Shown here piece after piece: positions 473-23,676 of a stretch of DNA of 32,000 nucleotides. The DNA lies in the NCBI RefSeq assembly GCF_000008645.1, contig NC_000916.1, positions 840,001 to 872,000 of the forward strand, read 5' to 3'. Under the pieces are notes generated by a model, which saw only the letters and a program-made list of their open reading frames with translations, made no database searches and was not told the DNA's origin. This DNA is from Methanothermobacter thermautotrophicus str. Delta H. Lineage in GTDB: Archaea; Methanobacteriota; Methanobacteria; Methanobacteriales; Methanothermobacteraceae. The position numbers and the translations under genes were made by a program. Position 1 is the first letter of the stretch, and every line of letters begins with the position of its first letter.

Positions 473-1255
473 TCAGAAAATGACTTTGAACCCCCATTTT
501 TCCCATATAACCCTGGCCTCATCTGATTTAATGTATTCAACGAATTCTTTTGATGTTTCAACGTTTCCTGAAATTGAAGTGACCGCTGCGGGTATTGTCT
601 GGTTCTTTGCTCCCTCGATTTCAATCATTTCCAGCTTTGATTTACTGTTGTTCCATGTCAACATGTCCTCCCATATTATAACTGCATCTACCTGTCCTGA
701 GAGGATGTATGTTAAGAGCTGATTAACTGTCGGAGTCTTCGCAACTAAATTTTCATTTATATTTACGCCCTCTTTATCAAGCATTTTCTGGGCGACTTTG
801 CCTATCGCGCATGCCTTGGGATCTCCTATCGCAACTCTCACGTTTTCTTTACCCAGATCTTTAAGGGAGGTTATGTTCTTCGGATTTCCCCTTTTAACGG
901 CTATGACGGGTTTATGTGAGGTCACATTCACAATGGTATCATTGATTATGTAACCCTTTTCTTTTGCCTTGTCCATTGTCGTATATTCGCCTGTTATGAG
1001 TACATCGCCCTTTTTTGATGTCATCAGTGTTGCAAGAAGTTCTCCTGAACCCCCATACTGAACATTAACCTTTTTTCCTGTCTTTTTCTCAAAATTAGTT
1101 ATTATCTCATTCATTGGTTTCATGAGCCCTGCCCCTGCAAGGACTGTGATCTCTGATCCCTTCATAGTCTTTGAATTTCCTGTGATAAGATACGCTCCTG
1201 TAACCGCTGAAAGGATCAGCAACCCTATTACAAACGCCATTATCTTCTTATCCAT
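473..1255 (-). CDS. modA: ModA-family molybdate/tungstate-type ABC transporter substrate-binding protein, membrane-anchored
   Basis: 260 aa. N-terminal hydrophobic anchor MAFVIGLLILSAVTGAYL. ModA-like segments VLAGAGLMKPMNEI and VQYGGSGELLATL. GGAGG lies 9 nt upstream of the ATG, which is 2 nt after the upstream stop. Mo versus W specificity cannot be read from the sequence. Confidence 0.8.
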   Translation of the reverse strand: MDKKIMAFVIGLLILSAVTGAYLITGNSKTMKGSEITVLAGAGLMKPMNEIITNFEKKTGKKVNVQYGGSGELLATLMTSKKGDVLITGEYTTMDKAKEKGYIINDTIVNVTSHKPVIAVKRGNPKNITSLKDLGKENVRVAIGDPKACAIGKVAQKMLDKEGVNINENLVAKTPTVNQLLTYILSGQVDAVIIWEDMLTWNNSKSKLEMIEIEGAKNQTIPAAVTSISGNVETSKEFVEYIKSDEARVIWEKWGFKVIF

Positions 1256-1257
1256 GA

Positions 1258-1968
1258 TCAGGCCTCCATTACCCTGTAGATTATTCCTCCATCTTTTTCA
1301 TGTAACATGCCCTCATTGAACCTTATTTTCTTTAGAATATTAACAGGATCAGTTATTTCAACCCCTGCAATCATATCAACCCCGTATTCAAAAAAAACAT
1401 CTGTCATTGGCGTTGTGGGTCCTATGATAGCCACAAAAGCATCAAGTTCTGCCAGTGCAAGGTAACGTTCTGTGCTGTGATTGACCAGTGTGCTGCCAGT
1501 CACTGCAAGTACATCAACCCGGGGGATAATCTGTTCAGCCGCTGTTTCAGGAAAAACACCCCTTTTAGGATTGACCTTAAATGGATTGATCTCCAGAATA
1601 TAGAACTCGTCCGAAACCGTCCTTATCCTGTCAGTGTAGCGGCGTGGGAATTCACCCACCATAGCGATTTTTCGATTTCGGCATTCCTCCATCAGTATAT
1701 CAAATGCATTGCATCGTTTACCACCTCCCTCGATCACTGAGTTAACAGTAGCAATTCCCAGGCTGGAATAAAATGGGTCCCATGACCTTGAAAGTTCAAG
1801 TAATTCATGAGTCATCTCTGGAATTTCAAAATCTCTGATGAATCCATTATTACTGGCTATACCGCAGGAGCTGCTCCAAACAGCCGTCCATGATCTGCCT
1901 ATGGCCACATCCCTTACTCTGATTTCAGGCATGTTCTCAATCTCATCCAGTATATCATCAAGTATCAT
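1258..1968 (-). CDS. DUF364/DUF4213-like protein (putative heavy-metal chelation domain family)
   Basis: Rossmann-like C-terminal half (KIAMVGEFP, VAIIGPTTPM, DMIAGVEI) is recalled as typical of DUF364. The ORF is open to the ATG at 2037, but that start overlaps the polyferredoxin by 37 nt. The ATG at 1966-1968 (MILDDILDEI) is preferred. Confidence 0.6.
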   Translation of the reverse strand: MILDDILDEIENMPEIRVRDVAIGRSWTAVWSSSCGIASNNGFIRDFEIPEMTHELLELSRSWDPFYSSLGIATVNSVIEGGGKRCNAFDILMEECRNRKIAMVGEFPRRYTDRIRTVSDEFYILEINPFKVNPKRGVFPETAAEQIIPRVDVLAVTGSTLVNHSTERYLALAELDAFVAIIGPTTPMTDVFFEYGVDMIAGVEITDPVNILKKIRFNEGMLHEKDGGIIYRVMEA

Positions 1969-2000
1969 AATAGCACCAGTATAATGGCAATTTCGGGCAT

Positions 2001-2999
2001 TTATTTCTGGAGTGCCGTCTTTATGATGTGTTCCCATGCCACTGACTTTAGATTCCTGATCCTTAGTTCAGACCTTTCAATAGAGAGGAGTCCATCGGGA
2101 CAGACACTGGAGCATGCTCCGCAGAATACGCAGAATTTCTCATCGATCCGGGCAGTACCATTTATTATACTGATTGCATTACAGGGACAAACATCCACAC
2201 ACGCGTGGCATGACTCACCCCTGCATCGCTCATCTGCCTGGCTTATGGTTCCTCTGATGGGTTTTTTAACGGTGATCGCATTTGCCGGGCATATTTCCAT
2301 ACACCAACCACAGTGAGCACATCTTTCATCAATTGTTATGACAGCACCCTCAACAGTGGCCTTCAGTTCCTCATTATACATGCATGTCAGACAGCTCATA
2401 CGGATGGCGCCAACAGGACATATCCTTTTGCATATGCCACAGTAGAGACATTTATCCTCATCCACCCGGATTCCATCGGCTATCGCCATATTTGATGAAT
2501 CCGGGTCTCTCCAGCTTATTTCAATGGCTGATGCAGGACACATAGCTGCACATTCACCACAATAGATGCATTTTTCCATTGATACATTTATCTCCCCTTT
2601 TACAAGGGATTTACGTTCAGGAAGATCCCTGATGGTTAAGAGTGCATTCCTTGGACATGCATCGGCGCAATTACCGCATAAAAAGCATTTTTCGTCATCA
2701 ATTTCAAGTTTAAAGTCCCAGAACGGATATTCATCGGCGCCCCTTATGCTTTTACCATCCTTCTGGAGATCTATGGCTCCGAAGATGCATACTGAAGCAC
2801 ATAACCCACATAGAACACACTTCTCCTTGTTGAAGGACACTCTGTTCATTTTGATTAAACCCCTCGCTATTGGGAGAAGAGGAGCTCTATCTATAGCGTT
2901 CACAGGGCATGTCTCTGAACATAACCCACAACCCGTGCATAGATCCGGATTGTAATTCAATGTCCTCCTTTCAGAACCCATCCTTTCATTAACCAACAT
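2001..2999 (-). CDS. Polyferredoxin with eight [4Fe-4S]-type Cys motifs (FwdF/MvhB-like)
   Basis: 332 aa. Eight motifs counted by eye: CTGCGLCSETCP, CVLCGLCASVC, CFLCGNCADACP, CIYCGECAAMCP, CLYCGICKRICP, CAHCGWCMEICP, CRGESCHACVDVCP, CVFCGACSSVCP. Confidence 0.9.
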   Translation of the reverse strand: MLVNERMGSERRTLNYNPDLCTGCGLCSETCPVNAIDRAPLLPIARGLIKMNRVSFNKEKCVLCGLCASVCIFGAIDLQKDGKSIRGADEYPFWDFKLEIDDEKCFLCGNCADACPRNALLTIRDLPERKSLVKGEINVSMEKCIYCGECAAMCPASAIEISWRDPDSSNMAIADGIRVDEDKCLYCGICKRICPVGAIRMSCLTCMYNEELKATVEGAVITIDERCAHCGWCMEICPANAITVKKPIRGTISQADERCRGESCHACVDVCPCNAISIINGTARIDEKFCVFCGACSSVCPDGLLSIERSELRIRNLKSVAWEHIIKTALQK

Positions 3000-3222
3000 C
3001 AGTATCTACCTCAGAAATAGCGCCGTTTGGACAGTTAGAGATGCAAAGCCTACAATTATCACATTTATCATTTATCACAAGGGGAAACCCGTTGTCCTCA
3101 ATTATTGCATCCTTTTCACAGATGAGAATGCAGAGGCCTTTTCCCGCGCAGTTTTCAACACCGCTACATTTCTCCCTATTGATGACTATCATAGACCAAC
3201 CTCGAAATGTAATTTTTTGCAT
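2989..3222 (-). CDS. Small ferredoxin, two Fe-S cluster motifs (FwdG-like size)
   Basis: One canonical motif (CDNCRLCISNCP) and one atypically spaced motif (CSGVENCAGKGLCILIC). It overlaps the polyferredoxin start by 11 nt. Two starts are possible: ATG 3222, leaderless relative to the TATA at 3244-3251, or ATG 3192 preceded by GAGGT. Confidence 0.8.
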   Translation of the reverse strand: MQKITFRGWSMIVINREKCSGVENCAGKGLCILICEKDAIIEDNGFPLVINDKCDNCRLCISNCPNGAISEVDTDVG

Positions 3223-3342: not shown

Positions 3343-3355
3343 AAAAATAAAAAAA
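3343..3355 (-). terminator. Oligo-T terminator after the CobN-like gene
   Basis: The minus strand reads TTTTTTTATTTTT beginning 7 nt after the stop codon at 3362-3364. Confidence 0.45.
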
Positions 3356-3361
3356 TTGAAA

Positions 3362-6300
3362 TTAATCTGTTCTTCCAGGTCCAAAGAAGTACCCCAGACC
3401 TAGAAGGCCCACTATCGCCACTATACCAACTATGGCATAGACAGGTAGCCCGGTCTCCGGGTTAGCTGAACCTGAGGCGCTGCTGACCTCATAGGCCTTA
3501 CCCTGGTTTTCGCCCGCTGAGGAATGAGTTGCTGCCTCCACTCCAGGTGCTGATGTTGAAACATCTGAATCCTGTGATTCCTCGTGATGTGGCTCCCCGT
3601 TGTCTGCTGATGTACCCGGTGCCTGTGGCTGTCCTGGATTTGATGGTGCTGTGGGTGTGGATCCTCCATCGGAGGATGGTGCGAATGCTGAGCTCTTTGT
3701 GGCAGCGTAAAGCTTCTCCCTGACCCTTGAGAGAAGGTCCGGGTTCAGGTACTGCATGGCCCATTCCATCATGGCGATGTTGCCGCAACTGCAGTCACAG
3801 CATGCCACACCATTCTCTGCTATTGCCTGGGCCCACGTGGTGGCTATGAGACGCTTTGTGGCATCATCGGGGTTCCAGTATCCTCGGTGTATCGCTGTGA
3901 GCATCGTCCCTGTCATGCTTATCATTGCATAGCTGTTCCTACCCTGGGATAACCAGTCCTTAACTCCAAGTCCATATCTATCCCTTATGTATATGTCCAC
4001 TGTCTCCTCCCACATCCAGTCCGAGATTGTCTCGGGGCTCATTACATTCCAGCCCCAGAGGTTGGCCACGAAGTTGTTTGAGATCTCCCTTGCACCTGCG
4101 TATCCACTCTGCATCATTGCCTGTATCCATCTTGGGTTGTAGTAGCGTGACTGGAGCTCCCTGTAGAGGAACTGGTTCAGTGTCTCTATTCTGGCATTTG
4201 AGGGATTCACCTGGTTTATTATGTACATACCAGGGACCCTGCCGCCTGCCGCCTCAACTGCAAGCCTGAAGCCACCCAGGAACTCAAAGTTATGGTCCAC
4301 GTCCACGACCCCGTAGAGGTTGGTTGATCTTGAGTGGTACACACCCTCAACGTCCCTGAGTCTCATAGTGAGGACCTCCTCAAGGCTCACTCCCCAGCCA
4401 TCCTCACTGAGGGCATACTTCATGCTGTCAATGTACAGTCTTCCAAGCTCTGTCCTTTCCTCCCAGGTCCAGTCCTGCTGGACTGCCTCAGGAAGCCTTG
4501 TACCGTAGTTACCCAGTGATGGCCCAAAGAGCCTGGATATGGCTGCAATTCCTGCATCCTCTGGTTTCATGCCGAGTTTAATGAGCTCCTTAACATCATA
4601 TAGCCAGTGCCTTGCAATGGGGTTCCTGTCAAGGGGATCACTTCCCGGTATGAACAAACCTGCCTTCTGTATACTTGAGACCGAGGCGTTGAGTGCTGCG
4701 AGGAGCATGGTCCTGTTCTCTGCTGATTCCTGGTTTATGGCAGCCATCAGGGTATTGAATGATGCTGCCAGCGCCACCCTTGATGCCCTGTCCAGGAGGA
4801 CTCCCAGCAGCGGGAAGGTTTCCCTGAATATCCCTGATGTGGTCATGAGGACATCGACCCTTGACCTGTTGAGGACTGTCAGTGGTGTTGCCCTCACACC
4901 CATGACTGAACCTCCGAAGCCATAGATTGGTTCGAGTCCCATGAGCCTCAGGATGAAGGCAACCGTAGCACCCTTATCGTTCTGTGTCTCAGTCGCCCAT
5001 ATGACAACACCGAGCTGTTCGGGTGTTGCATTGTATGCTCTGAGCGCCTCATCAGCAAGCATGGAGCCCCTTATCCATGCGGCCTGTGTTGGAAGAAGTG
5101 AAGGATCCTCACCGTAGAGGTTTCCTCCCGTTGGAACCGCTGCTGGGTTCCTGATTGGGTCTCCCCCAGCTATGGGTGGTATGTAGCCACCTGCAAGGGC
5201 CTGAAGGAGCATCTGCCTCTCCCTTGCCCCTGAGCCCTTGATGTTCAGGACATCATTGAGGGTCATATTCAGGGCTGTTATCTCTGTTGCTGTGAGGTTT
5301 CTTCCGAGAACTGCCTGGAGCTCCGCCATGAGGGTCTGAAGTGACTTTCCACTGTAAAATTCTAGTATAAGATCTTCCACGGTCCTGTTTATTCCTGAGA
5401 GTGCCTGTGTCACCGAGAGGAAGGTGTTGTTACCGGCGCTTATCCTTGGAACACTGGCCATTGATTTTACCATGATGGTAAGCTGTGTCTGGTTCAGGTC
5501 CCTTCCAAATACGTAGAGACCAAGTGGCATCATTGTGCCCTCAAGTTCCCTTATGTAGTCGTCGATTCTATCAACCAGTTCATCCGGGTCAAGGTTGAGG
5601 TCAATGATGGTATCAAGGTGGAGCTGGACTGCCTTCTCCCTTATGAGCCTTATCTCCTCTGACCTGTTGCCTGGAGCTGCATGGTACTGGTCTATGAGCG
5701 TCTTGAGTGAGGCAATGTCCCCGTAGATTTCTGTTGCCTCGAGTGGTGGTGTCAGGTGGCTTATGCTCACAGCAAGACCCCTTCTCTTGGCGTGTATGAC
5801 CTCCCCGACACCATCCATGATGTAGATGTAGATGCTTGGAATGCCTCCAAGGCATATGTCAGGGTAATCTGCACCGGATAGTGCTGATTCCTTCCTTGGG
5901 AGCCACTCATAGGTGCCATGCCGTCCGAGGTGTATCATTGCATCTGCGCCGAACTCTGTCTGAAGGTATGCATAGAAGGCAAGGTACTGGTGGTGGGGTG
6001 GCACTATCTGGCTGTGGTAGAGTTTATCCACGTCGCCTTCCCATCCTCGCTGTGGCTGAGGACCCACAAAGACGTTTCCATAGAACATGCCAGGTATAAC
6101 AAGGTACCTCTTACCGTTCCTCTCAACCGTCATTATGTTTCCTGGTGGTGCTCCCCATCCACAGAGTCCCGGGACCCTGAGGGCCAGGAATGCTGATTTT
6201 GCACTGTAGAAAACATCCCACTGATTCAGTCCACTGTAAATATTCTTGAGGGCATTGTAGGCCCTGTTAACCTGGTTCTTTGCCTCTGATCCGTTGCTGA

Positions 6301-8362
6301 TCTGCATGTCATCTATCGTTGTTATCAGTGAACTCTGCCACCTGTCCAGTGTTTCGAGGAGTTTCGGGTTTTCAGTGGAGTACCTGAAGAGTGCTTCGAT
6401 GTAGCCGAAGGGTCCCTCCTCGATTTCTCTCCTTGCAAGCTCAGGTAGTCTGCTGTACCATTCCATGTACCTCTCTACGTCCCATAGTATGGTTGAATTT
6501 GCAAGCCTCTCAAGTTCACCGGGAGCCCAGTTTGCAATGTTGAGTCCCCTCGCCATCATCTCTGTGAGGAGATCATCAACACATGAAGGTGCTCCTCTGA
6601 CGGTGTAGTTGTTTTCCTGCAGAAGGCCCAGTATCTCAAGTATTGATGAGGGACCATCCAGGTAACTTGCACCTGCAAGGTTCTGCTTCCCTGGTGGATA
6701 GTTGTAGTAGATTAGGGCAACCTTCTTATCTGCATTTGAGAGGAACCTTAACCTCAGCCAGGAGTATACCCTGTCTGCAAAGGTTTCTACGCGCTCATCA
6801 ATGGGCTGATAGCATTCAACCTCCAGACCGGTTACGGTATCTATGGTCTTACGGGTCGATGCTGTTACCATTGTGAGTATCTGGCCCTGGAACTCCGGGA
6901 GCACGATCTGGCTTGTTATGCTTGTAAAGTCCATCCCTGAATCTGAGATGTACCATGTTTCCTCACTGTCGGAGACCACAAGTGATCTGAAGACCAGTAT
7001 ATTGTTGTCCATAATCATCCTTTCAGCGATTGCAGCGGTGGCGCCTCCAATCTTAAATGACTGGAGCGTTATGAGCCCCTGAATCCTTGTCCTGTTTTGA
7101 GAGTCAAAGAAGTAGCTCCTCATTGCATTTATGACCGGTGTTCCGTCAACAGGGTTACCCTGAGCTATAGTTGCTATGACATTTATGCCCCTTGACTCCA
7201 TTTCACTGATGAGTCTGTCGAGCATGAGGAGGTCACCGCGCTCCCATGTGAGTGCCATCCATGAGGTTATACCCACCGTGGGTCTTCCAGGCGTTAAGAA
7301 CTGCTCATAGTCTGTGAAGTTGTAGTAAAGTCTGCCGTTGCGGTAGAGGGCATACTTCGGAACTATTACCGGTTCTGTGAAGTTGTAGCCTCTTCCAGGG
7401 AATGCCAGTGCCAGGAGGTACATGAGACCCTGCTCCCTGTTCTCAGGTGATGCTGTGTCTGATGTCTTGTATTCCTGGAATTTAAGGTAGGATGCCATTG
7501 CAGGGTACTGCTGCTGCAGCTCCCTCAGCACCATTAGCGGTGTCTTTGGTGGCACTGCCCTTGAAACTGAATCAAAGATTGCCTGGAGCTGACTGTCTGT
7601 TAGTTCCGTGCCATTGGCATCAACGAACCTCGTATTGTTTATGTTTGTGAGCCTTGTAACCGGAAAACAGTGATATGGATTGGGGTAGGCCGCTATCACC
7701 TTACCATTAAGTTTTCCCTGACTCTTCATTGACATCAGCAGGTCAGGTACAGGACCGCTTGGACCGTTTGTTGTCTGTACGTTGCTTATGTAGACTATAT
7801 CAGCCCATTCTATGAGCTGTTCTGTCTCTGTGAGGTTCATCCTCGTCTGGTCAGTGTTTCTCACCTTTATGGTTATCTCAGGGTGCTTCTGCATTATGTT
7901 TTTCACTGGCTGGATGAGCTGCCCTGCCTCTGTTGGCCAGGATATTATTAAAAACCGTATCTCCGGCGGATCAAAGATACTGACACCGGCCAGTGGCTCG
8001 TCTCCATCATCAAAGATGGTGTTGTCGTTTAAATCTGCATAGAGCCTCCCTGTTATCTTCGAATCACTGAGGGATGCTTCAAGAATCATTTTTCCGCTTC
8101 TTGCAGATGCATTTGATGATGCTGACACTGTTACCCTGAGCATGTCATCGAATCTGTGCCTTTCAGGTAGTGTCCGGCCATCAACCCAGACAACATGACT
8201 GTCGCCAGTCACATTTTCAAATGCGAATCTCCCCTCGCTGTCTGTGATGTTGAATGGGGTTCCTCCTTCACCTCCATCAATCTCTGCAGCCATGCTTGAT
8301 CCCTGTAGCATGAAAACGAAAACCACTGTTATCAGTAGAGTAACACTTCGTTTTCTAATCAT
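3362..8362 (-). CDS. Giant CobN/BchH-family chelatase-like protein with N-terminal signal peptide, beta-sandwich domain, low-complexity stalk and C-terminal TM anchor
   Basis: CobN/Mg-chelatase H hallmark HLGRHGTYEWLPRKE and long collinear CobN-like body. Signal-like N-terminus MIRKRSVTLLITVVFVFMLQGSSMAAE. SdrD-B-like signature GRLYADLNDNTIFDDGDEPLAGVSIF. C-terminal S/T/P/G-rich tract followed by LPVYAIVGIVAIVGLLGLGYFF. The track start at 8368 is GTG and lies inside the SD GGAGGTGA (8365-8372), so the ATG at 8360-8362 is preferred. Confidence 0.9.
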   Translation of the reverse strand: MIRKRSVTLLITVVFVFMLQGSSMAAEIDGGEGGTPFNITDSEGRFAFENVTGDSHVVWVDGRTLPERHRFDDMLRVTVSASSNASARSGKMILEASLSDSKITGRLYADLNDNTIFDDGDEPLAGVSIFDPPEIRFLIISWPTEAGQLIQPVKNIMQKHPEITIKVRNTDQTRMNLTETEQLIEWADIVYISNVQTTNGPSGPVPDLLMSMKSQGKLNGKVIAAYPNPYHCFPVTRLTNINNTRFVDANGTELTDSQLQAIFDSVSRAVPPKTPLMVLRELQQQYPAMASYLKFQEYKTSDTASPENREQGLMYLLALAFPGRGYNFTEPVIVPKYALYRNGRLYYNFTDYEQFLTPGRPTVGITSWMALTWERGDLLMLDRLISEMESRGINVIATIAQGNPVDGTPVINAMRSYFFDSQNRTRIQGLITLQSFKIGGATAAIAERMIMDNNILVFRSLVVSDSEETWYISDSGMDFTSITSQIVLPEFQGQILTMVTASTRKTIDTVTGLEVECYQPIDERVETFADRVYSWLRLRFLSNADKKVALIYYNYPPGKQNLAGASYLDGPSSILEILGLLQENNYTVRGAPSCVDDLLTEMMARGLNIANWAPGELERLANSTILWDVERYMEWYSRLPELARREIEEGPFGYIEALFRYSTENPKLLETLDRWQSSLITTIDDMQISNGSEAKNQVNRAYNALKNIYSGLNQWDVFYSAKSAFLALRVPGLCGWGAPPGNIMTVERNGKRYLVIPGMFYGNVFVGPQPQRGWEGDVDKLYHSQIVPPHHQYLAFYAYLQTEFGADAMIHLGRHGTYEWLPRKESALSGADYPDICLGGIPSIYIYIMDGVGEVIHAKRRGLAVSISHLTPPLEATEIYGDIASLKTLIDQYHAAPGNRSEEIRLIREKAVQLHLDTIIDLNLDPDELVDRIDDYIRELEGTMMPLGLYVFGRDLNQTQLTIMVKSMASVPRISAGNNTFLSVTQALSGINRTVEDLILEFYSGKSLQTLMAELQAVLGRNLTATEITALNMTLNDVLNIKGSGARERQMLLQALAGGYIPPIAGGDPIRNPAAVPTGGNLYGEDPSLLPTQAAWIRGSMLADEALRAYNATPEQLGVVIWATETQNDKGATVAFILRLMGLEPIYGFGGSVMGVRATPLTVLNRSRVDVLMTTSGIFRETFPLLGVLLDRASRVALAASFNTLMAAINQESAENRTMLLAALNASVSSIQKAGLFIPGSDPLDRNPIARHWLYDVKELIKLGMKPEDAGIAAISRLFGPSLGNYGTRLPEAVQQDWTWEERTELGRLYIDSMKYALSEDGWGVSLEEVLTMRLRDVEGVYHSRSTNLYGVVDVDHNFEFLGGFRLAVEAAGGRVPGMYIINQVNPSNARIETLNQFLYRELQSRYYNPRWIQAMMQSGYAGAREISNNFVANLWGWNVMSPETISDWMWEETVDIYIRDRYGLGVKDWLSQGRNSYAMISMTGTMLTAIHRGYWNPDDATKRLIATTWAQAIAENGVACCDCSCGNIAMMEWAMQYLNPDLLSRVREKLYAATKSSAFAPSSDGGSTPTAPSNPGQPQAPGTSADNGEPHHEESQDSDVSTSAPGVEAATHSSAGENQGKAYEVSSASGSANPETGLPVYAIVGIVAIVGLLGLGYFFGPGRTD

Positions 8363-8380
8363 TTTCACCTCCTTTATAGT

Positions 8381-8718
8381 TTTTACAATTGTGGATATGG
8401 TATGAAGATTATTTAAGACTTTTTATTAATTTTTTTATTACATATTCTTGCTCTAATAAAAATTAAGTAATAATTATATGAAAATTTAATACATTCATCA
8501 CGCGTTATTGCATAATTAATGAATATTTTATCTGCATTTATGTATTACCGATGTATGTAACTCAAGAAATTAAAAATTTTTATAAATATAACGGCAAGGT
8601 TAAAGCCCTTTAAACGTTTCAGAAAAATTCTGAATCGATCAATCAACTGAAGAGGCCATTTAGTGCCATTCAACGCACCTGTATGTAATAATTATAGTTA
8701 ATAAATTAATCACAGGGG
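8381..8718. promoter_or_regulatory. Extremely AT-rich spacer containing the EEP gene terminator and the CobN-like gene promoter region
   Basis: Hand count gives 9/60 GC for 8401-8460 and 11/60 for 8461-8520, against about 50% in the flanking genes. There are many T-runs and repeated ATTAAT/TAATTA strings. Confidence 0.5.
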
Positions 8719-13190: not shown

Positions 13191-13586
13191 TCAGGGTATG
13201 GGTATGCCGTGGGGGCACCTTGCCGGGTTCCTCAGGTACCTCATGAGTGCCAGCTCTGTTTCCCTGAAGAGCTCGTGCTTCATGCGGGAGGCCTCCTCAT
13301 AGGATGAGTCGAGGTCCATTCCAAGGACGTTGTGGAAGAAGCACTCCAGGATCATGTGCCTCCTTAGAACCATCTCTGCAATCTCCCTTCCCTCATCTGT
13401 GAGTTCAGCCCCCAGGTATGGGTGGTAGATGACAAGGCCCATTTCATGGAGTCTCTTGAGCATCTGGGTTACACTGGCTGGTCTGACGTTCATCCTTGAT
13501 GACAGGTCAGAGGTTTTAACGATCCCGTGACTACTTAACCTGTATAATGTCTCGAGGTAGTTTTCCATGCTCCTTGTGAGTTCCAT
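13191..13586 (-). CDS. DtxR/MntR-family metal-dependent transcriptional repressor
   Basis: MENYLETLYRL...TSDLSSRMNVRPASVTQMLKRLHEMGLV...LTDEGREIAEMVLRRH...CPHGIPIP. The ATG at 13586 is preferred over the TTG at 13613. Confidence 0.85.
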   Translation of the reverse strand: MELTRSMENYLETLYRLSSHGIVKTSDLSSRMNVRPASVTQMLKRLHEMGLVIYHPYLGAELTDEGREIAEMVLRRHMILECFFHNVLGMDLDSSYEEASRMKHELFRETELALMRYLRNPARCPHGIPIP

Positions 13587-13597
13587 AAAGACACCAA

Positions 13598-13613
13598 TTG
13601 AATATATATTCAA
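13598..13613. promoter_or_regulatory. Perfect 16-bp palindrome TTGAATATATATTCAA in the divergent dtxR / TIGR04076-like promoter region
   Basis: Read directly and self-complementary. It lies 12 nt upstream of the dtxR-like ATG and about 40 nt upstream of the plus-strand ATG at 13653. Confidence 0.5.
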
Positions 13614-13967: not shown

Positions 13968-14303
13968 ATGTTCTCAGACTGCAGATTCGGCTCCGTGACC
14001 TACAGGGGACGTGAATACAGATCAGACATCGTGGTGCACGTTGATGGGAGTGTGACACCAAGGAGGAAGGAGATATCAAGGAGGAAATACGGGACATCCC
14101 ATGTCATGGCAGAGGAGGAACTTGAGGAACTCCTGGAAGAGAAACCTGAATCCATAATCATAGGCTCAGGGGTCCATGGAGCCCTTGAAACCGGGTTCAG
14201 ATCAGATGCAACAGTTCTTCCCACCTGTGAGGCCATAAAGAGGTACAATGAGGAGAGGAGTGCCGGTAGGAGGGTTGCGGCCATAATACATGTGACCTGC
14301 TAA
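13968..14303 (+). CDS. Mth938-domain (DUF498) protein
   Basis: 111 aa with YRSDIVVHVDGSV...PESIIIGSGVHGAL...EAIKRYNE, matching the Mth938-like fold family named after the M. thermautotrophicus ORF. Confidence 0.85.
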   Translation: MFSDCRFGSVTYRGREYRSDIVVHVDGSVTPRRKEISRRKYGTSHVMAEEELEELLEEKPESIIIGSGVHGALETGFRSDATVLPTCEAIKRYNEERSAGRRVAAIIHVTC

Positions 14304-14866
14304 TCGACAAGGCCCTCCATGTAAAGCCGGGCCCAGTAGTACCTCAGCATCCTCCTCCTTTCGGTGCAGTCCGGCATCTCAGATTCGAGGATACCCCAGA
14401 ACCTCGGGCTGTGATTCATCTCCCGGAGGTGGGCCAGTTCATGGAGCACCACGTACTCCACCATCCTGTCCGGGAGATGGGAGAGGAGGGTGTTGAAGCT
14501 CAGATTGCCCCTGGAGCTGCAGCTACCCCAGCGGGACCTCATCCTCCTGAAACGGACCCTCCCATATTCGACGCCCAGGACATCAGAGTAATGGTCCAGG
14601 AATCCGCTGACCAGTGATCTCAGTTCCTTATCCCGCCGGTACTCCAGTTCCATGTCAGATGCCCTCTCAAGCATCTCATGGAACTCATGGATCTTCCTCT
14701 GGATCCAGTCACTCCTGGATGATAGAACCTCCATGGGGTCCCCGGTGAAATCTGCGGGGAGTATCAGACGCAGGCTGTCGAATCTCAGCTCAATCCTCGG
14801 GTTCTTAACCCTCCTGTATATGACCTCACATCTAACCTCCAGGTCCCCGGCCATGAATCTGTCCAT
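14300..14866 (-). CDS. YgjP-like / DUF45 zinc metallopeptidase-fold protein (HExxH)
   Basis: VLHELAHLREMNHSPRFW near the C-terminus. The ATG at 14866 lies 4 nt after the hsdR stop; the track start at 14887 is TTG. Its stop overlaps the Mth938 gene stop convergently. Confidence 0.85.
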   Translation of the reverse strand: MDRFMAGDLEVRCEVIYRRVKNPRIELRFDSLRLILPADFTGDPMEVLSSRSDWIQRKIHEFHEMLERASDMELEYRRDKELRSLVSGFLDHYSDVLGVEYGRVRFRRMRSRWGSCSSRGNLSFNTLLSHLPDRMVEYVVLHELAHLREMNHSPRFWGILESEMPDCTERRRMLRYYWARLYMEGLVD

Positions 14867-14870
14867 TTTA

Positions 14871-17800
14871 TCACTGATACCTCTCAAATATTTTCATAAG
14901 ATCTTCCTGTGCTTCATCGGCGATCTGCCTTCTTTTGGGCGCATCCTTCGGGAGGTTCCTCAGGAGGAAAACCCTTATGATTCTCATAACATTCCTCTTA
15001 ACGCTCTCCTGGGACGTCCATCCAGGGAATATGTTCCCATCAACCTCCTCTGTAAGGGCAACAGCATATTCCTTCAGTTTATCCTCTGGTATACCTCTAC
15101 CCCTGAGGGTCATCAGGACCGCGAACTCCTTCTCGTCAAGACCGAGCTCCTTCATTCTGCGCTCCTCCTTCCAGATCTCTCTTATGATGGCAGCGCCCTC
15201 CCTGTAGAGTTCCTCGTAGTCCATGGTTTTCTCCCTCCACTGTTCCAGGAGGCGTTCAACCTTTTCAGCCACCGATTCATAGATGGGGTTCCTTGTGCCA
15301 TTCCTGAGGACATATGAGTTGAGTGTGTAGACTGTTAAGGCAGCCTTATCCCTTATATCCCTGACCTTCCTGAGGTTTTCAAAGTAATCGGAGTCAAATT
15401 CTATTACCGGGAGTTTACTTTCTATTTCCCTGAACTCTGTGGTCCTGTGGATGTATTTGAGGGTTTTCTGGTAATACCTTTCAGTTTCGGCTTCAACTGA
15501 TGGTTTCCTTGATACGACTCTCTGATAGTATGTGTAGATGACCGTGAGCCACCTGTAATCCTTGAGGCCATGCCTTATGAAGGGCTGGTCAGAGAGCAGC
15601 TCGAAGAGCCTTCTGAGTTCACGGTAATTCTCTGTGAATTTCTTTTCGAGTTCTTCATCAGAGGTTATGAGTTCAACCGCGTCGGAGAGGACCTCAATAT
15701 CCATCCCATCCCATTCAAGGTCGCTGAAGATCCTGAGGGTCTCCCTGAGTAGCTCCTCGTATTCCCTCTTCATGGATTCCATATCGTATACTGCGCCCTC
15801 ATACTCCTCCTTACTGTAGAGCTCAAATGCGCGCCTCAGTTCCGCCCCCATGACTCCAATGTAATCTATTATGAGGCCTGCCTCCTTGACGTCCCTGTAG
15901 GGTCTGTTTGTTCTTGCAACTGCCTGCAGCAGTCTGTGTTCCTTCAGTGGCTTGTCGAGGTACATGGTCTGGAGTATGGGTGCGTCGAATCCTGTGAGGA
16001 GCATATCCGTCACTATGAGTATCCGGGGGTTCCTATCAGGGTCCCTGAACCTTTCCAGTACCAGGTTTTTAATCTCATGGTGGTTCCTGCCATGGTATTT
16101 ATCCATGAGTTCCTCATCATAGGCCCTTATTATCTCCTCGTCCCGTGGAGTGTAGGTCATTACGATCTCAGAGTACTCTGGTGGGAGGTGCCTGTCGAGT
16201 TCCCTCTTGTAGAGGACGCATGCCCTTCTGCTTGGAGCCACAACCATGGCCTTGAATCTTCCATCGATGTTCTCTTTGAAGTGTTTCGCGATGTCCTCTG
16301 CTATTAGCTCTATCCTGCGAGGGTTCTCGAGGATGGTTTTTATGGTGTCCAGTTTCCTTTTAACAGATTCCTCAACGTCCTTCCTTATGGATTCTGGCAG
16401 TTCCTCGAATTCCACACCGATGAATGCCTCCAGGTGCTTCCTGTCAAGGTGGACGTCACCTGCGAGTCTCGGCTGATAGGTTATCTTCACGGTGAAGCCG
16501 TCCCTTATGGAGTCTGTTATGAAGTACTGGTGGATGTATTTCTCTTCGGGGGGGTATGCGAACCTATCATAGGTGTCGCGTTCCCTCTTTGATATGGGTG
16601 TTCCTGTGAAGCCGAAGAAGAACGCTGATCTCAGCATGTCCTTCATCTGGGCTGCCAGGAGGCCATACTGACTCCTGTGGGCCTCATCAATGAAGACTAT
16701 GACGTTCTTCCTGTCCATTATGGTTTCTCCTCCATGTTCCCTGAGTTCGGCTGTTATATCATCAAGTTTGTCTGTGAATTTCTGTATGAGTGTTATGAAT
16801 AGGCCCCTCTTTCCCCGGTAGTCATCGCTGGCTATTGTTCTCTTTAATTCTGCTATGGATTCTATTCTTTCAGGCTGGTGGATTTCCAGTGCCGCGAGTT
16901 CTGCGTATAACTGTTCCTCAAGTTCTCTGCGGTCCACTATGAAGAATACTGTTGGGTTCTCCAGTTCCTTCATCCTGTAGAGTTTACTGGCCGCGAATAT
17001 CATTGTCAGGGTTTTGCCTGATCCCTGCCAGTGCCATATGAGGCCCCTGTTCCTTTTATCTTCTCCCCTGATGTTCCTAAGGACCCTTTCAACTATCCTC
17101 TCAGCTGCATGGTACTGCATGTGCCTTGCTATGACCTTGGTTGTTGATCCGAACTCTGTCCTTATGTAGATGTAGTTCCTGATGAAGTCGAGCACCCTTT
17201 CTGGTCTGAGGAGTGGGAGTATATCTGCGGCCGGGAGTCCTGTGTGGTGCTCATGGCCCTGTTTTCTGGATTTTTGAGGGAGTTTACCATCCGTCTCCCT
17301 CCACTCGAAGGTGGGGACCTCATCAAGCCAGGGAACTATCGGGAAGTACCTTGCAAAGTCTTCAGCAGCGACACCCATCTGTACGTACTTGTAGAGTTCC
17401 GGCACTGTCTTCTCATAGTCCTTTATCTGCCGGTAGGCGTCCGCCCATGTCTCTGACATCCCCACGGGGTTTTTGAGTTCTATGTTCACGAGGGGGATGC
17501 CGTTGATGAAGAGCATTATGTCTGTCCTTATGGTCTGGTCACCACGACGGAATACGACCTGCCTTGATGCTGTGAATGAGTTGTGGCTTGGGGTATCGTG
17601 GTCAAGGATTTTGACCTTCCTGGGTTCCCCTGTTGTGGCAGATTTTATGTAAACGCCATTTTTAAGGTATTCAAGTATCGATTTGCATCCCTCAATGCTT
17701 GCTGCTTTACCCCGGAGCTCTTGGATGACCTGCTGTATATCATCATCCTCTATATACTGGTTGATCCTTCTTATGGAGTCTATCAGCTCAGATTCTATGA

Positions 17801-17912
17801 GGGGGTTTTCAGGGTCATCCCTCCCAAGTTCGGCGGCCGGTATATCATTCCAGCCCATTCCCCTCAGTTCCTTCATGAAGTAGTCTTCAAGGGCCTCCTC
17901 ATTTAATTTCAT
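14871..17912 (-). CDS. hsdR: Type I restriction enzyme R subunit
   Basis: 1013 aa. Nuclease D...ELK (DIMLFINGIPLVNIELK). Helicase motifs WQGSGKTLTM, FIDEAHRSQ, FTGTP and QAVARTNR. Confidence 0.95.
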   Translation of the reverse strand: MKLNEEALEDYFMKELRGMGWNDIPAAELGRDDPENPLIESELIDSIRRINQYIEDDDIQQVIQELRGKAASIEGCKSILEYLKNGVYIKSATTGEPRKVKILDHDTPSHNSFTASRQVVFRRGDQTIRTDIMLFINGIPLVNIELKNPVGMSETWADAYRQIKDYEKTVPELYKYVQMGVAAEDFARYFPIVPWLDEVPTFEWRETDGKLPQKSRKQGHEHHTGLPAADILPLLRPERVLDFIRNYIYIRTEFGSTTKVIARHMQYHAAERIVERVLRNIRGEDKRNRGLIWHWQGSGKTLTMIFAASKLYRMKELENPTVFFIVDRRELEEQLYAELAALEIHQPERIESIAELKRTIASDDYRGKRGLFITLIQKFTDKLDDITAELREHGGETIMDRKNVIVFIDEAHRSQYGLLAAQMKDMLRSAFFFGFTGTPISKRERDTYDRFAYPPEEKYIHQYFITDSIRDGFTVKITYQPRLAGDVHLDRKHLEAFIGVEFEELPESIRKDVEESVKRKLDTIKTILENPRRIELIAEDIAKHFKENIDGRFKAMVVAPSRRACVLYKRELDRHLPPEYSEIVMTYTPRDEEIIRAYDEELMDKYHGRNHHEIKNLVLERFRDPDRNPRILIVTDMLLTGFDAPILQTMYLDKPLKEHRLLQAVARTNRPYRDVKEAGLIIDYIGVMGAELRRAFELYSKEEYEGAVYDMESMKREYEELLRETLRIFSDLEWDGMDIEVLSDAVELITSDEELEKKFTENYRELRRLFELLSDQPFIRHGLKDYRWLTVIYTYYQRVVSRKPSVEAETERYYQKTLKYIHRTTEFREIESKLPVIEFDSDYFENLRKVRDIRDKAALTVYTLNSYVLRNGTRNPIYESVAEKVERLLEQWREKTMDYEELYREGAAIIREIWKEERRMKELGLDEKEFAVLMTLRGRGIPEDKLKEYAVALTEEVDGNIFPGWTSQESVKRNVMRIIRVFLLRNLPKDAPKRRQIADEAQEDLMKIFERYQ

Positions 17913-17926
17913 GTTCTATCCCCCCC

Positions 17927-19150
17927 CTATGATGTTATTCTGACCCTCCTTTTACCTGTCAGGAGGTCGTTCATGAGCCCCCTCTTTATGTTTTCAAGTT
18001 TAACCTTCCTCTCCGTGAGGAGCTCGAGCCTTCTGTCCACATCCTGGAGTATCTCTGAAATCCTTTTCTGCTCCTCAAGAGGAGGGAGGGGAATTTTTAT
18101 TTTCCTCATTATTCCCTGGTTTAACTTCTTTCTTGTGGATCCAACGACATAATGAGTTAAATCTAAATAAATAAGAATATGGAGTAAAAATCTATTAGTT
18201 ATCTTAGAAGGTAACGCTTCGATAACATGTGCATGATTATTAACCCAAAACTTACCATTCATTATATATGCAGAGCTCCCAAAGGATGAATAATCACCTC
18301 CATCCTCAGCTAAAAGTACAAATTCCCCATTAAAAATATAATCATTGATATAATCAATTATGCCGTTCGCTCCACAATATGGATAATCACCTTTCATCTT
18401 AATTCTTTCTTTTTCACTAAGAGGTATTCTTTTATTATCATGAATCTCAACAACATCCTCCAAGTTAACAACATCCCAATCCACAGGAATCCTGCCAACA
18501 TGAGAATCCTTGAATTCCGTGTGGTTGATGCCCTCCATCAGAAGCCTCTGCATGAGACCCCTCTTAAGTTTCTCTGTAACCCCTATCTCCTTATTAACCT
18601 TCTCTATCGCACCATCAACATCCTGGAGTATCTCTGAAATCCTTTTCTGCTCCTCAAGAGGGGGTACCGGTAAATAAATTTTTTCCAAAGTTTTTTTATT
18701 GAGTTCTTTGAACGTGCTGCCTCCGCTGAGGTCTTGCAGGCGTTTTTTATTTATTAATAGATAATATGCAAAATATCTCGTGTCAACATGTGATTTAGGG
18801 ACTAGTGCTTTGCATCCTTGATTAAACACACATTCAACCGTATTCAATGCAACGTATCCAACTGGTGCTCTTGTTGAGATGAGAATGGAAAGTTTAGGGA
18901 TAAGATTAAGATTTGTTCTTTTCAGCGCCTTCACAGTAACCTTTCTTTCGCTGTCTGCTATCATAATCCCGTTAAGATTACTCATATCAGCAGGTGTAAC
19001 CCAAACAACATCACCATCATCCCAGAACTCATCTATTTTAGTTGATGGTGTAGTTCCAGTAAAAACATCAAAAACTTCCGAAACTCTGGAAACACCCCAA
19101 TCCACAGGAATCCTGCCAACAGGAGAATCCTTGAATTCCACAGTATTCAC
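17927..19150 (-). CDS. hsdS: Type I restriction-modification specificity subunit
   Basis: 407 aa with two target-recognition halves. Each is preceded by EFKDS.VGRIPVDW and followed by PPLEEQKRISEILQDVD. The GTG start overlaps the hsdM stop (GTGA). Confidence 0.95.
   Translation of the reverse strand: MNTVEFKDSPVGRIPVDWGVSRVSEVFDVFTGTTPSTKIDEFWDDGDVVWVTPADMSNLNGIMIADSERKVTVKALKRTNLNLIPKLSILISTRAPVGYVALNTVECVFNQGCKALVPKSHVDTRYFAYYLLINKKRLQDLSGGSTFKELNKKTLEKIYLPVPPLEEQKRISEILQDVDGAIEKVNKEIGVTEKLKRGLMQRLLMEGINHTEFKDSHVGRIPVDWDVVNLEDVVEIHDNKRIPLSEKERIKMKGDYPYCGANGIIDYINDYIFNGEFVLLAEDGGDYSSFGSSAYIMNGKFWVNNHAHVIEALPSKITNRFLLHILIYLDLTHYVVGSTRKKLNQGIMRKIKIPLPPLEEQKRISEILQDVDRRLELLTERKVKLENIKRGLMNDLLTGKRRVRITS
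18039..18661. repeat. Perfect 44-bp direct repeat inside hsdS (18039-18082 and 18618-18661)
   Basis: ACATCCTGGAGTATCTCTGAAATCCTTTTCTGCTCCTCAAGAGG was read twice. It encodes the conserved EEQKRISEILQDV helices. Confidence 0.95.
18475..19139. repeat. 44-bp direct repeat with one mismatch inside hsdS (18475-18518 and 19096-19139)
   Basis: CCCAATCCACAGGAATCCTGCCAACA(T/G)GAGAATCCTTGAATTCC. It encodes the EFKDS.VGRIPVDW segments. Confidence 0.9.
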
Positions 19151-20919: not shown

Positions 20920-20971
20920 ATTATCACCTTCAGTTAAGGTGGCAGTCCTGCCTGCAATGATCCCGGTCCAG

Positions 20972-21012
20972 ATTATACAAGCTAATTGACTTACCACTTG
21001 TATAATTTATAC
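20972..21012. promoter_or_regulatory. Inverted-repeat cluster in the hsdM promoter/5' leader
   Basis: ATTATACAAG (20972-20981) and CTTGTATAAT (20997-21006) form a perfect 10-bp inverted repeat with a 15-nt spacer. It overlaps the 13-bp palindrome GTATAATTTATAC (21000-21012). An AT-rich TATA-like tract lies at 21014-21028. Confidence 0.45.
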
Positions 21013-22817: not shown

Positions 22818-22851
22818 CTTCACTGACATAACAATAATGTGGGGGTGTTTT

Positions 22852-23676
22852 ATGGACAACATTGAAAGAATTAAAATGATTGAGAAGTCCCCTATAAGTT
22901 TTGAGGGGCTGAGGAAGCTGAACATAGCGGCCGGGTCCCTGCACCTGATCCAGGGGCTTCTGATGGTTGCGCTGGGTTACCTGCTCACATGGGACAGGGA
23001 CATCTACACGTTCTACCTGAAGTTCAAGATACTCTCACTGAATCCGCCGTCATTCCAGGTCCTTCCCAGCCCTGAGGTGGCATTCACCGTGAGCTACCTC
23101 GGGGTGATCCTTGCATCCTTCCTCCTGATATCTGCGGTGGCCCACTTCACAATAGCCTTCCTCAGGAATGAGAGTTACGTTGAGAACCTGAAGAGGGGTA
23201 TGAACCCCTACCGCTGGTACGAGTATGCTCTCTCAAGTTCAATAATGATAGTGATACTGGCCACCTTCGTGGGGGTCTGGGACCTCTGGTCACTTGTGAT
23301 GATCTTCGTCCTCAACGCATCGATGATAATGTTCGGCTACCTGATGGAGAAGATCAACCAGTACACCGAGAAGATCGACTGGTCACCCTACCTCCTGGGG
23401 TGCATCTCCGGCTTCACCCCATGGGTGGTCATTGCAGCCTACTTCATCGCCGCCCTGGGCTCCGCCGAGACACAGCCACCGGACTTCGTCTACCTCACAC
23501 TGCTCATCTACTTTGTGATGTTCAACACATTCTCCGTCAACATGCTGCTGCAGTACAGGGGTGTCGGTAAATGGAGGGACTACCTCTACGGTGAGAGGGT
23601 CTACATCATACTGAGCCTGGTTGCAAAGACCCTGCTGGCCTGGCTGGTGTTCATAGGGGTGTTCTCACCCTTCTAG
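22852..23676 (+). CDS. Heliorhodopsin-family 7-TM protein
   Basis: NPYRWYEYALSSSIMIVIL, NASMIMFGYLMEK and GERVYIILSLVAKTLLAW closely parallel the remembered heliorhodopsin 48C12 segments FRWVEYSLSSSVMIVLIA, NASMILFGWLQEK and GERAYIVLSLVAKSALAW. His residues are conserved in SLHLIQ and AVAHF. Confidence 0.85.
   Translation: MDNIERIKMIEKSPISFEGLRKLNIAAGSLHLIQGLLMVALGYLLTWDRDIYTFYLKFKILSLNPPSFQVLPSPEVAFTVSYLGVILASFLLISAVAHFTIAFLRNESYVENLKRGMNPYRWYEYALSSSIMIVILATFVGVWDLWSLVMIFVLNASMIMFGYLMEKINQYTEKIDWSPYLLGCISGFTPWVVIAAYFIAALGSAETQPPDFVYLTLLIYFVMFNTFSVNMLLQYRGVGKWRDYLYGERVYIILSLVAKTLLAWLVFIGVFSPF

Follow-up and report, generated by a model that had tools for sequence, protein, structure and literature searches.

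A 32-kb stretch of Methanothermobacter thermautotrophicus DNA (the window, in whose coordinates all positions are given) contains an open reading frame (ORF) at 3362..8362(-) whose product is labelled 'cobaltochelatase subunit CobN' in the database. Sequence and model comparisons indicate that this protein is a member of the class I chelatase superfamily (CobN/ChlH/HmuS) and not the cobaltochelatase of the B12 pathway, and that its chelatase body is very probably extracytoplasmic and type-I-anchored on the membrane. The explanation that we favour joins this surface location to catalysis, membership of a nickel-starvation regulon and metal scavenging, and as a joint picture it stands an even chance of being correct.

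Family, fold and location of the protein

The ORF runs from ATG 8362 to a stop codon at 3362-3364 and encodes a product of 1666 amino acids, whose residues are numbered here from that ATG. The product is 100% identical to WP_432704105.1 (chromosome CP194219.1), and it shares a 90%-identity cluster (at least 90%) with the strain Delta H protein AAB85426.1/O27011 (annotated as 'cobalamin biosynthesis protein N') and with the copy from strain CaT2. A first reading of our contig scan, according to which Delta H and M. marburgensis lack the gene, was rejected: AAB85426.1 is in this same cluster, and the scan was not exhaustive, as it missed M. marburgensis although both search peptides occur there. 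An earlier reading made from the letters of the window (the sequence-only reading) had described a signal-like N-terminus, a CobN body and a terminal helix in this ORF, and the coordinates, the two hydrophobic segments found and the PF02514 match agree with that description. The parts of the protein are as follows.

3362..8362, reverse strand: coding sequence of the predicted exported CobN/ChlH/HmuS-family protein (ORF, PF02514 and homologue match)
8282..8362, reverse strand: signal-peptide-like N-terminus, residues 1-27, MIRKRSVTLLITVVFVFMLQGSSMAAE (basic MIRKR, hydrophobic core, likely cleavage between SMA and AE)
7958..8281, reverse strand: N-terminal beta-sandwich add-on, residues 28 to ~135 (AlphaFold model)
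3695..7957, reverse strand: class I chelatase body with head, neck and body domains, residues ~136-1556 (PF02514, Foldseek)
5888..5932, reverse strand: HLGRHGTYEWLPRKE motif, residues 811-825, with H815 and E819 (alignment to HmuS and ChlH)
5798..5812, reverse strand: GVGEV motif with E854 (alignment to ChlH E660 and HmuS Glu-577)
4292..4306, reverse strand: VDVDH motif with D1356-H1357 (alignment to HmuS Asp-1208/His-1209)
3452..3694, reverse strand: low-complexity stalk of S, T, P, G and acidic residues, residues ~1557-1637 (composition)
3485..3499, reverse strand: KAYEV juxtamembrane motif, ~12 residues ahead of the helix (conserved in relatives)
3383..3448, reverse strand: single C-terminal transmembrane helix, residues 1639-1660, LPVYAIVGIVAIVGLLGLGYFF, ending in a conserved G-Y-F (hydrophobicity, conservation)
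3365..3382, reverse strand: short tail GPGRTD, predicted to be cytoplasmic (GPGRR or RRKR in relatives)

The profile check that the sequence-only reading had proposed, with the Pfam model PF02514 (CobN-Mg_chel), returned a full match (E 6.1e-270, 899 bits versus a cut-off of 24.5), whereas all nine NCBIfam equivalog models for CobN/BchH scored below their cut-offs (774 versus 1619 for NF004645, and 524 versus 822 for TIGR02257). Two AlphaFold models were used, one of the N-terminal half with a predicted local distance difference test (pLDDT) score of 80, and one of the body with a pLDDT of 76. In Foldseek searches the model of the N-terminal half matched ChlH, CobN and HmuS at E values of 1e-14 to 1e-17, and the best match of the body model was HmuS (9d26; E 5.6e-37, template modelling score 0.54), ahead of CobN and ChlH. 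The model of the C-terminal domain superposes on CobN 9fpc at 1.9 A, and the models have the head-neck-body multi-domain fold that marks class I chelatases. HmuS was also the top sequence match in the PDB (E 7.7e-107), with ChlH nearly tied, and its identity to the window protein is approximately 26% over the body.

The residues at the known catalytic positions of this superfamily are kept in the window protein. H815 aligns with His-538 of HmuS, and the HmuS H538A variant is inactive (PMC12583661). E819 aligns with the residue altered in the ChlH E625K structure, and E854 aligns with ChlH E660, the residue altered in the E660D/W structures, and with HmuS Glu-577; all three residues are invariant across the clade (alignments A1 and A4). 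The D1356-H1357 pair aligns with Asp-1208/His-1209 of HmuS, so that both site-2 dyads of HmuS (His-538/Glu-577 and Asp-1208/His-1209) have counterparts here. D-H is also found in the closest relatives, while the same position reads S-H in ChlH and D-D in CobN and in paralogues of the MTH673 type. By these alignments the D-H pair is diagnostic, in that it groups the window protein and its closest relatives with HmuS and apart from the CobN and MTH673-type proteins. The sequence-only reading had proposed a surface protein that captures tetrapyrroles, corrinoids or metals in place of an enzyme. We do not favour this, as the kept catalytic residues make an enzyme more likely than a passive binder.

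The same reading had held that the protein is not a biosynthetic chelatase, and this was borne out. Neither ChlI/ChlD- or CobS/CobT-type genes nor cob genes were found among the ORFs of the 32-kb window or of the 25-kb locus L034, and it is the lack of cob genes and of an AAA+ partner nearby, together with the missed NCBIfam cut-offs and the export signals, that argues against the CobN of the B12 pathway. We argue that the label 'cobaltochelatase subunit CobN' is wrong for the whole clade.

In terms of location, only two hydrophobic segments are present in the whole protein (residues 1-28 and 1635-1663), and each is flanked by basic residues on its far side, which argues for a body placed outside the cytoplasm. 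The plan was kept in every full-length relative fetched from Methanothermobacter, Methanobacterium and bacteria (Desulfotomaculales, Peptococcaceae and an Ammonifex-like contig), and consists of a basic-hydrophobic N-terminus ending in small residues, the body, a linker, the pattern [AS]-[YH]-E-[VI], a single helix and a basic tail. Equivalent N-termini were present in homologues P0006 and P0008-P0010 and in the L011 paralogue. The proposal of the sequence-only reading that the body sits outside the cell is thus in agreement with an N-terminus, linker, C-terminal helix and basic tail that are conserved in archaea and in monoderm bacteria.

The low-complexity part of the stalk is ~80 amino acids long, shorter than the ~110 first estimated, and a length of ~107 is reached only when the last helices of the body are included. 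All full-length relatives have a comparable linker, though of different sequence. The pattern [AS]-[YH]-E-[VI], also written [KR]-[AS]-Y-E-[VI] in relatives, is kept 10-20 residues before the C-terminal helix from the Methanobacteriales to the Firmicutes, whereas the surrounding linker is not. A known C-terminal sorting signal was considered and rejected, because none of the NCBIfam sorting-signal models (PGF-CTERM, LPXTG and others) reached its cut-off against KAYEV and the C-terminus; the sole match was to LPXTG_anchor (E 0.19, 12.5 bits versus a cut-off of 15.9). At the other end of the protein, the SdrD-B-like signature seen earlier was below threshold in Pfam (SdrD_B, E 0.056; CarboxypepD_reg, E 0.15), and what stood of it is an all-beta domain that AlphaFold modelled with confidence (pLDDT ~90). 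A CarboxypepD_reg match is listed in a paralogue at locus L005, and the MTH673-type paralogue is without this beta-sandwich.

The number of N-x-S/T sequons is exactly 22, as had been counted by hand, compared to 10.8 +/- 3.1 in 5000 shuffles. This is a 2.0-fold excess, in line with the 2-3 times first estimated, and 0.08% of the shuffles reach 22. All of the sequons fall within residues 38-1225. An excess was also observed in the Methanothermobacter orthologues (z 2.6-3.7), with z values of 3.0 and 1.7 for the paralogues, and was absent in the Methanobacterium and bacterial homologues compared. This suggests that the exposed body may be N-glycosylated; the excess is consistent with such modification in Methanothermobacter and is not a family-wide trait.

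A HMMER search of 1.84 billion cluster representatives, made without the low-complexity linker, returned 4428 related clusters; an earlier homologue search with the full-length protein had given 19 matches, possibly dominated by linker words. Among the best 150 of the 4428 representatives, 120 have a C-terminal segment resembling a membrane helix, and 85 of these also have a hydrophobic N-terminus. The premise from which the sequence-only reading had started, namely that this fold is always cytoplasmic and driven by AAA+ partners and ATP, does not hold in view of these counts and of HmuS, BtuS1 and BtuS2. A CobN-family body outside the cytoplasm is not unprecedented: BtuS1 and BtuS2 were described in 2018 as membrane-anchored, periplasm-facing CobN homologues (PMC6460266), and HmuS of B. 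thetaiotaomicron was described in 2025 as a haem dechelatase with a predicted single transmembrane helix at each terminus (PMC12583661). The authors of the latter study call the function of the archaeal homologues unclear.

A shared operator and its probable link to nickel

The elements found around the coding sequence are as follows.

8435..8473, no strand assigned: perfect palindromic operator TTATTAC-N25-GTAATAA (sole match in the window)
8409..8434, reverse strand: conserved A/T block AAAAATTAATAAAAAGTCTTAAATAA right after the operator, a probable archaeal promoter with B recognition element (BRE) and TATA box (comparison with the L008 orthologue)
8365..8372, reverse strand: Shine-Dalgarno-like GGAGGTGA, 2 nt ahead of the ATG (sequence)
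3343..3355, reverse strand: oligo-T run, 6 nt past the stop codon, a probable archaeal terminator (sequence)

The palindrome is located 67 nt upstream of the scan-listed ORF start (GTG 8368). It is the only match in the 32-kb window, where 0 were expected, and a search tolerating up to 2 mismatches gave no further site. In an 84%-identical orthologue (L008) the half-sites are intact and the spacer has diverged, and AAAAATTAATAAAAAGTCTTAAATAA differs by one base within surrounding sequence that has diverged. Throughout 773 kb of fetched loci, all 28 exact operator matches precede a CobN-like or DUF2162 gene, at a distance of 65-114 nt. These represent 8 distinct promoters besides that of the window, and their hosts are Methanothermobacter and Methanobacterium. 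The half-sites are separated by 25 or 26 nucleotides at the secreted CobN-like genes and by 16 at the DUF2162 gene. Sites with one mismatch precede further CobN-like genes, and in the genome of the window itself, sites with at most 2 mismatches occur at three promoters, those of an FmdE-like gene, a CobN-like paralogue and a DUF2162 gene. Judged by this distribution, the TTATTAC-N-GTAATAA sites define a regulon of the Methanobacteriales.

Tandem arrays of 2-4 secreted CobN-like genes (1450-1720 amino acids) were observed on Methanobacterium-type contigs and on a metagenome contig (array contigs L005, L006, L001 and L013, and L007 for the metagenome), and most of the genes in the Methanobacterium-type arrays have an operator copy of their own. 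Giant CobN-like versions of 2195 and 3964 amino acids were seen at L017 and L018.

The Shine-Dalgarno element and the T-run were both confirmed at the positions first given, and the same Shine-Dalgarno-like element, AAAGGAGGTGAAA, precedes the paralogue genes too. The next gene begins 170 nt downstream of the chelatase gene. In view of the terminator the gene is probably monocistronic, with its own promoter and terminator, as had been proposed. The upstream spacer (8373-8718) measures 346 bp, close to the ~340 bp of the first estimate, but its GC content is 24.9% (12-36% per 50 bp) and not 15-20%. A riboswitch in this AT-rich leader was considered and rejected, as no Rfam matches were obtained in it at E <=1; the only matches in the window were two tRNAs.

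In Methanothermobacter the CobN-like paralogue is part of a locus with the gene order NAS (nicotianamine-synthase family), FmdE-domain protein, secreted CobN-like paralogue, DUF2162, MotA/ExbB and DUF2149. In the window's own genome (CP194219.1) this locus is found at 553-574 kb, ~240 kb from the chelatase gene, and the paralogue is intact (1696 amino acids, L052 3973-9063) and 42% identical to the window protein over residues 399-1664. It is broken into 2-4 ORFs in M. marburgensis (MTBMA_c10550-70) and in many M. wolfeii-like genomes (split at L028, L030, L038-L040, L043 and L045-L047), while the DUF2162, MotA/ExbB and DUF2149 genes beside it stay intact. The FmdE-domain protein encoded between the NAS gene and the paralogue has 930-970 amino acids (L052 900-3787; L029 1041-3944), and has a weak match to a Shr-like haem-binding domain (E 0.008, below the cut-off).

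Proteomics data for M. marburgensis under nickel limitation (Nature 2025, PMC12350162, supplement) cover proteins of this locus. MTBMA_c10530, described as a 'predicted transporter protein', is ~35-fold up, and its name and its place beside the His_biosynth gene c10510 identify it as the MotA/ExbB gene; it is not up in the dataset taken to be iron limitation. The DUF2162 protein c10540 was detected solely under nickel limitation, and the FmdE-like c10580 showed the strongest response of the locus (~300-fold up). CobN1 of M. marburgensis was ~300-fold up as well, and the study singles out CobN1, NikR1 and 'possible metal-chelating proteins' as proteins of nickel limitation (PMC12350162). Since the operator is present at the paralogue locus and the proteins of that locus are induced by nickel limitation, the operator appears to mark nickel-starvation promoters. 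By analogy, we infer that the window gene would respond to nickel starvation likewise, with NikR as a possible regulator.

Partner genes, known systems and competing explanations

The sequence-only reading had found no partner genes for the chelatase. This was correct locally, within 32 kb, but close bacterial homologues directly adjoin DUF2162, MotA/ExbB and DUF2149 genes, and the same module accompanies the own-genome paralogue under the same operator. The three genes were found beside homologue P0007 (56% identical), which is encoded on metagenome contig L004, a near-identical counterpart of the Ammonifex locus L016. In a Desulfotomaculales genome the module stands beside the homologue with an adjoining Nik-type ABC importer and DUF4198, and it was also found beside homologues in Actinomycetota, Armatimonadota, Myxococcota and Nitrospirales. 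The module genes match the annotated hmuU (MotA/ExbB) and hmuV (DUF2149) of the hmuYRSTUV operon of Bacteroidota, in which hmuS is annotated as CobN-like and hmuT as hypothetical only. The single helix of DUF2149 holds an Asp in the context LVDAMLVL, which resembles the essential Asp of ExbD; the BLASTP match between DUF2149 and an ExbD sequence was weak (E 0.011). In Bacteroides, the role suggested for MotA/ExbB-DUF2149 is to energise a TonB-dependent receptor (PMC12583661). Many of the hosts found here have no outer membrane, and therefore the pair cannot serve only such a receptor. The neighbourhoods that we looked at showed no gene of the HmuY or HmuR type.

The bacterial homologues are 51-56% identical to the window protein and are thus closer to it than the in-genome paralogue (42%), which suggests inter-domain gene transfer with thermophilic Firmicutes. 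Some thermophilic Firmicutes are syntrophic partners of Methanothermobacter.

Among known systems, HmuS (B. thetaiotaomicron/Porphyromonas, PDB 9d26, PMC12583661) is the most similar to the window protein. It belongs to the same superfamily, is the best match in both sequence and structure, and has a hydrophobic helix at each terminus and an extracytoplasmic body, differing in the detail that the N-terminal segment of the window protein looks cleavable. Linkage of the family to DUF2162-like, MotA/ExbB and DUF2149 genes is common to both, as is induction by metal starvation, which is known here from the proteins of the M. marburgensis paralogue locus. In contrast to HmuS, the window protein is found in a monoderm archaeon with no outer membrane, HmuY/HmuR or haem uptake operon. 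It adds the N-terminal beta-sandwich, the long stalk and the KAYEV motif, its inferred trigger is nickel and not iron, and its gene stands apart from the TUV-like module.

BtuS1 and BtuS2 of Bacteroides fragilis are similar by description, being predicted exported, membrane-anchored CobN homologues that are needed to use tetrapyrrole-bound metal and whose activity is putative (PMC6460266); they differ in being bacterial, from a diderm host, and related to iron and haem. CobN of CobNST (PDB 7c6o, 9uk9) and ChlH/BchH (PDB 4zhj) share the fold, the Pfam family and the catalytic Glu/His positions. These are soluble proteins of the cytoplasm that act together with AAA+ partners and ATP and are encoded in biosynthetic clusters, whereas the window protein falls below the NCBIfam cut-offs, bears signals for export and anchoring and lacks such partners in its neighbourhood. 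The MTH673-type paralogue matches the window protein in its signal peptide, stalk, SYEV motif, helix and GPGR tail, and in its operator family. It differs in the missing beta-sandwich, in having D-D and not D-H at HmuS 1208/1209, as in CobN, and in the position of its gene, which the NAS and FmdE-like genes precede and DUF2162, MotA/ExbB and DUF2149 directly follow. As an analogy only, the MotA/ExbB protein with the small single-helix DUF2149 is similar to ExbB-ExbD-TonB and TolQ-TolR-TolA, and a long Pro/Ser-rich spacer connects the single helix of the chelatase with the working domain, as in TonB. The hosts, however, have no outer membrane or TonB-dependent receptor, and the anchor of the chelatase is C-terminal, so that its orientation is reversed.

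In the explanation that we favour, scarcity of nickel would lift repression at the palindrome via a nickel-responsive regulator, possibly NikR. The protein would then be exported, probably glycosylated, and held above the membrane on its flexible stalk by the C-terminal helix. In this position it may bind, in the manner of HmuS, an environmental metallo-tetrapyrrole of the F430, corrinoid or porphyrin type, from which the metal would be removed for uptake; by analogy with HmuS, dechelation is favoured over insertion, the forward reaction being less likely. Energy or gating would be provided by the proton-driven ExbB/ExbD-like DUF2162/MotA/DUF2149 module encoded elsewhere, and not by an AAA+ ATPase.

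A wider version of this proposal is a tentative one and is more likely wrong than right. It would see an unrecognised machine in the Methanobacteriales and many monoderm bacteria, in which an extracytoplasmic chelatase is coupled to an ExbB/ExbD-like proton motor, in place of an AAA+ ATPase, in a TonB-like manner via the helix, KAYEV and the stalk. In methanogens the machine would be controlled by the nickel-starvation operator and would harvest nickel (or cobalt) from environmental F430, corrinoids or metalloporphyrins. The window gene would then encode a second catalytic head, of the D-H type, that shares the motor encoded 240 kb away.

Other explanations have to be weighed against the favoured one. 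The protein could act at the surface as a purely passive receptor, capturing tetrapyrroles, corrinoids or metal ions without catalysis or energy input. The lack of partner or energy-coupling genes within 32 kb would fit such a receptor, as would a long stalk presenting the body away from the membrane. On the other hand, invariance of the residues at catalytic positions across the clade would not be expected of a mere binder, the characterised relative of the same architecture (HmuS) is an enzyme, and a candidate motor module is encoded in the same genome under the same operator. We consider a passive receptor unlikely. We think equally little of a forward extracellular chelatase, which would insert Ni2+ (or Co2+) into an exported tetrapyrrole-type carrier, with the ExbB/ExbD-like module replacing the AAA+ ATPase and the loaded carrier being imported. 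Class I insertion needs energy, and the clade is tied to MotA/ExbB and DUF2149 and not to ChlI/ChlD; moreover, the paralogue locus, which includes a gene for a metallophore (NAS), is switched on under nickel limitation. However, no exported tetrapyrrole carrier or importer for it was seen, and to our knowledge none has been described. Among the membrane-anchored members, the one that has been characterised catalyses the reverse reaction, and HmuS also has hmuTUV neighbours, so that the module does not imply insertion.

The database label could also be right, which would make the protein the cytoplasmic CobN of a cobaltochelatase or a nickel chelatase for F430. The label itself and the strong PF02514 match speak for it, and a nickel chelatase role was proposed for the paralogue MTH673 (Kaster et al. 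2011). Against it stand the scores below all NCBIfam CobN/BchH equivalog cut-offs, the signal-like N-terminus, stalk and C-terminal helix, and a neighbourhood with no cob genes or AAA+ partner. Methanothermobacter, in addition, uses the anaerobic CbiX route, and nickel is inserted into F430 by the small class II chelatase CfbA. This makes the label the least credible of the explanations, and an extremely improbable one. Hardly better is the idea of a structural or adhesive envelope glycoprotein that reuses the chelatase scaffold. The adhesin-type N-terminal beta-sandwich, the sequon excess, the stalk with its anchor and the tandem paralogue arrays of Methanobacterium are all compatible with it, but strict conservation of the active site speaks against it, as do the probable co-regulation of the gene with metal-uptake genes and the linkage of its relatives to such genes, and we regard this idea as very unlikely.

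Several observations weigh against the favoured explanation itself. The haem ligand of HmuS, His-254 in the HGR motif, is not kept and is aligned to Thr-Ala-Ala in KIGGATAAI, and the Met-rich insertion of the HmuS type (~120 residues) was not found in the window protein, where the maximum is 9 Met per 120 amino acids, in a stretch of the conserved body. It follows that the protein is not a true HmuS and is like it in plan only; the region of HmuS Met-79 could not be aligned with it. The body model has a pLDDT below 50 over residues ~773-881, which hold H815, E819 and E854, and for this reason the pocket cannot be compared with those of ChlH, CobN and HmuS. Conservation of the active site does not separate chelation from dechelation. 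The placement of the body outside the cytoplasm is based on hydrophobicity, charge distribution and conservation. No hmuTUV-like, hmuY or hmuR genes are present within the window. The nickel link is indirect, as it comes from the locus of a 42%-identical paralogue in another species, and an orthologue of the window gene was not seen in M. marburgensis by the non-exhaustive contig scan. The literature on possible regulators gave no archaeal consensus for the operator. Lastly, the paralogue is pseudogenised in many Methanothermobacter genomes, which makes the system dispensable in some settings.

Methanogens need unusually large amounts of nickel, and its acquisition under scarcity is poorly understood; their many 'CobN' genes have lacked an explanation ever since the first genome appeared in 1997. 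The surface placement, the link to an ExbB/ExbD-like module and a metallophore gene, and the operator shared with a locus that is induced by nickel limitation make scavenging of nickel or cobalt by such proteins testable. The linkage of module and chelatase in hosts without an outer membrane suggests that the HmuSTUV motor generally serves the chelatase and not (only) a TonB-dependent receptor. The elements that are new here are the hmuTUV-like neighbours of the bacterial relatives, the module and paralogue in the own genome, the shared palindrome, and the induction of the paralogue locus by nickel limitation.

Neighbouring genes in the window

Downstream of the chelatase gene (473-3192(-) and L034 15170-20460), genes were found for a 67-aa ferredoxin, a 332-aa polyferredoxin and two DUF364 'heavy-metal chelation' proteins, and in the same stretch for a Mo/W-type ABC importer (SBP_bac_11, a permease, and an ATPase with a TOBE domain); these genes abut fmdBCE and tfx. 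A functional link between these genes and the chelatase was considered and rejected, because the arrangement is not conserved and the T-run and 170 nt lie between them. No small ORF of ferredoxin size follows the L008 orthologue, as judged from ORF sizes alone. The arrangement is probably unrelated to the chelatase gene.

A 279-aa ORF at 22837-23676(+) has a full-length match to the heliorhodopsin family (PF18761, E 2e-95), in a host that is a thermophilic methanogen and a strict anaerobe. It is flanked by an archaeal phosphoenolpyruvate carboxylase gene on one side and by two tRNA genes on the other. In our literature search, heliorhodopsin and Methanothermobacter were not mentioned together in any paper. 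Positions 14300-20997(-) hold a complete type I restriction-modification system, with HsdM of 616, HsdS of 407 and HsdR of 1013 amino acids, which is followed by a gene for a YgjP-like metallopeptidase. A gene of the DtxR/iron-dependent-repressor family (PF01325 and PF02742) is located at 13191-13613(-), ~5 kb from the chelatase gene.

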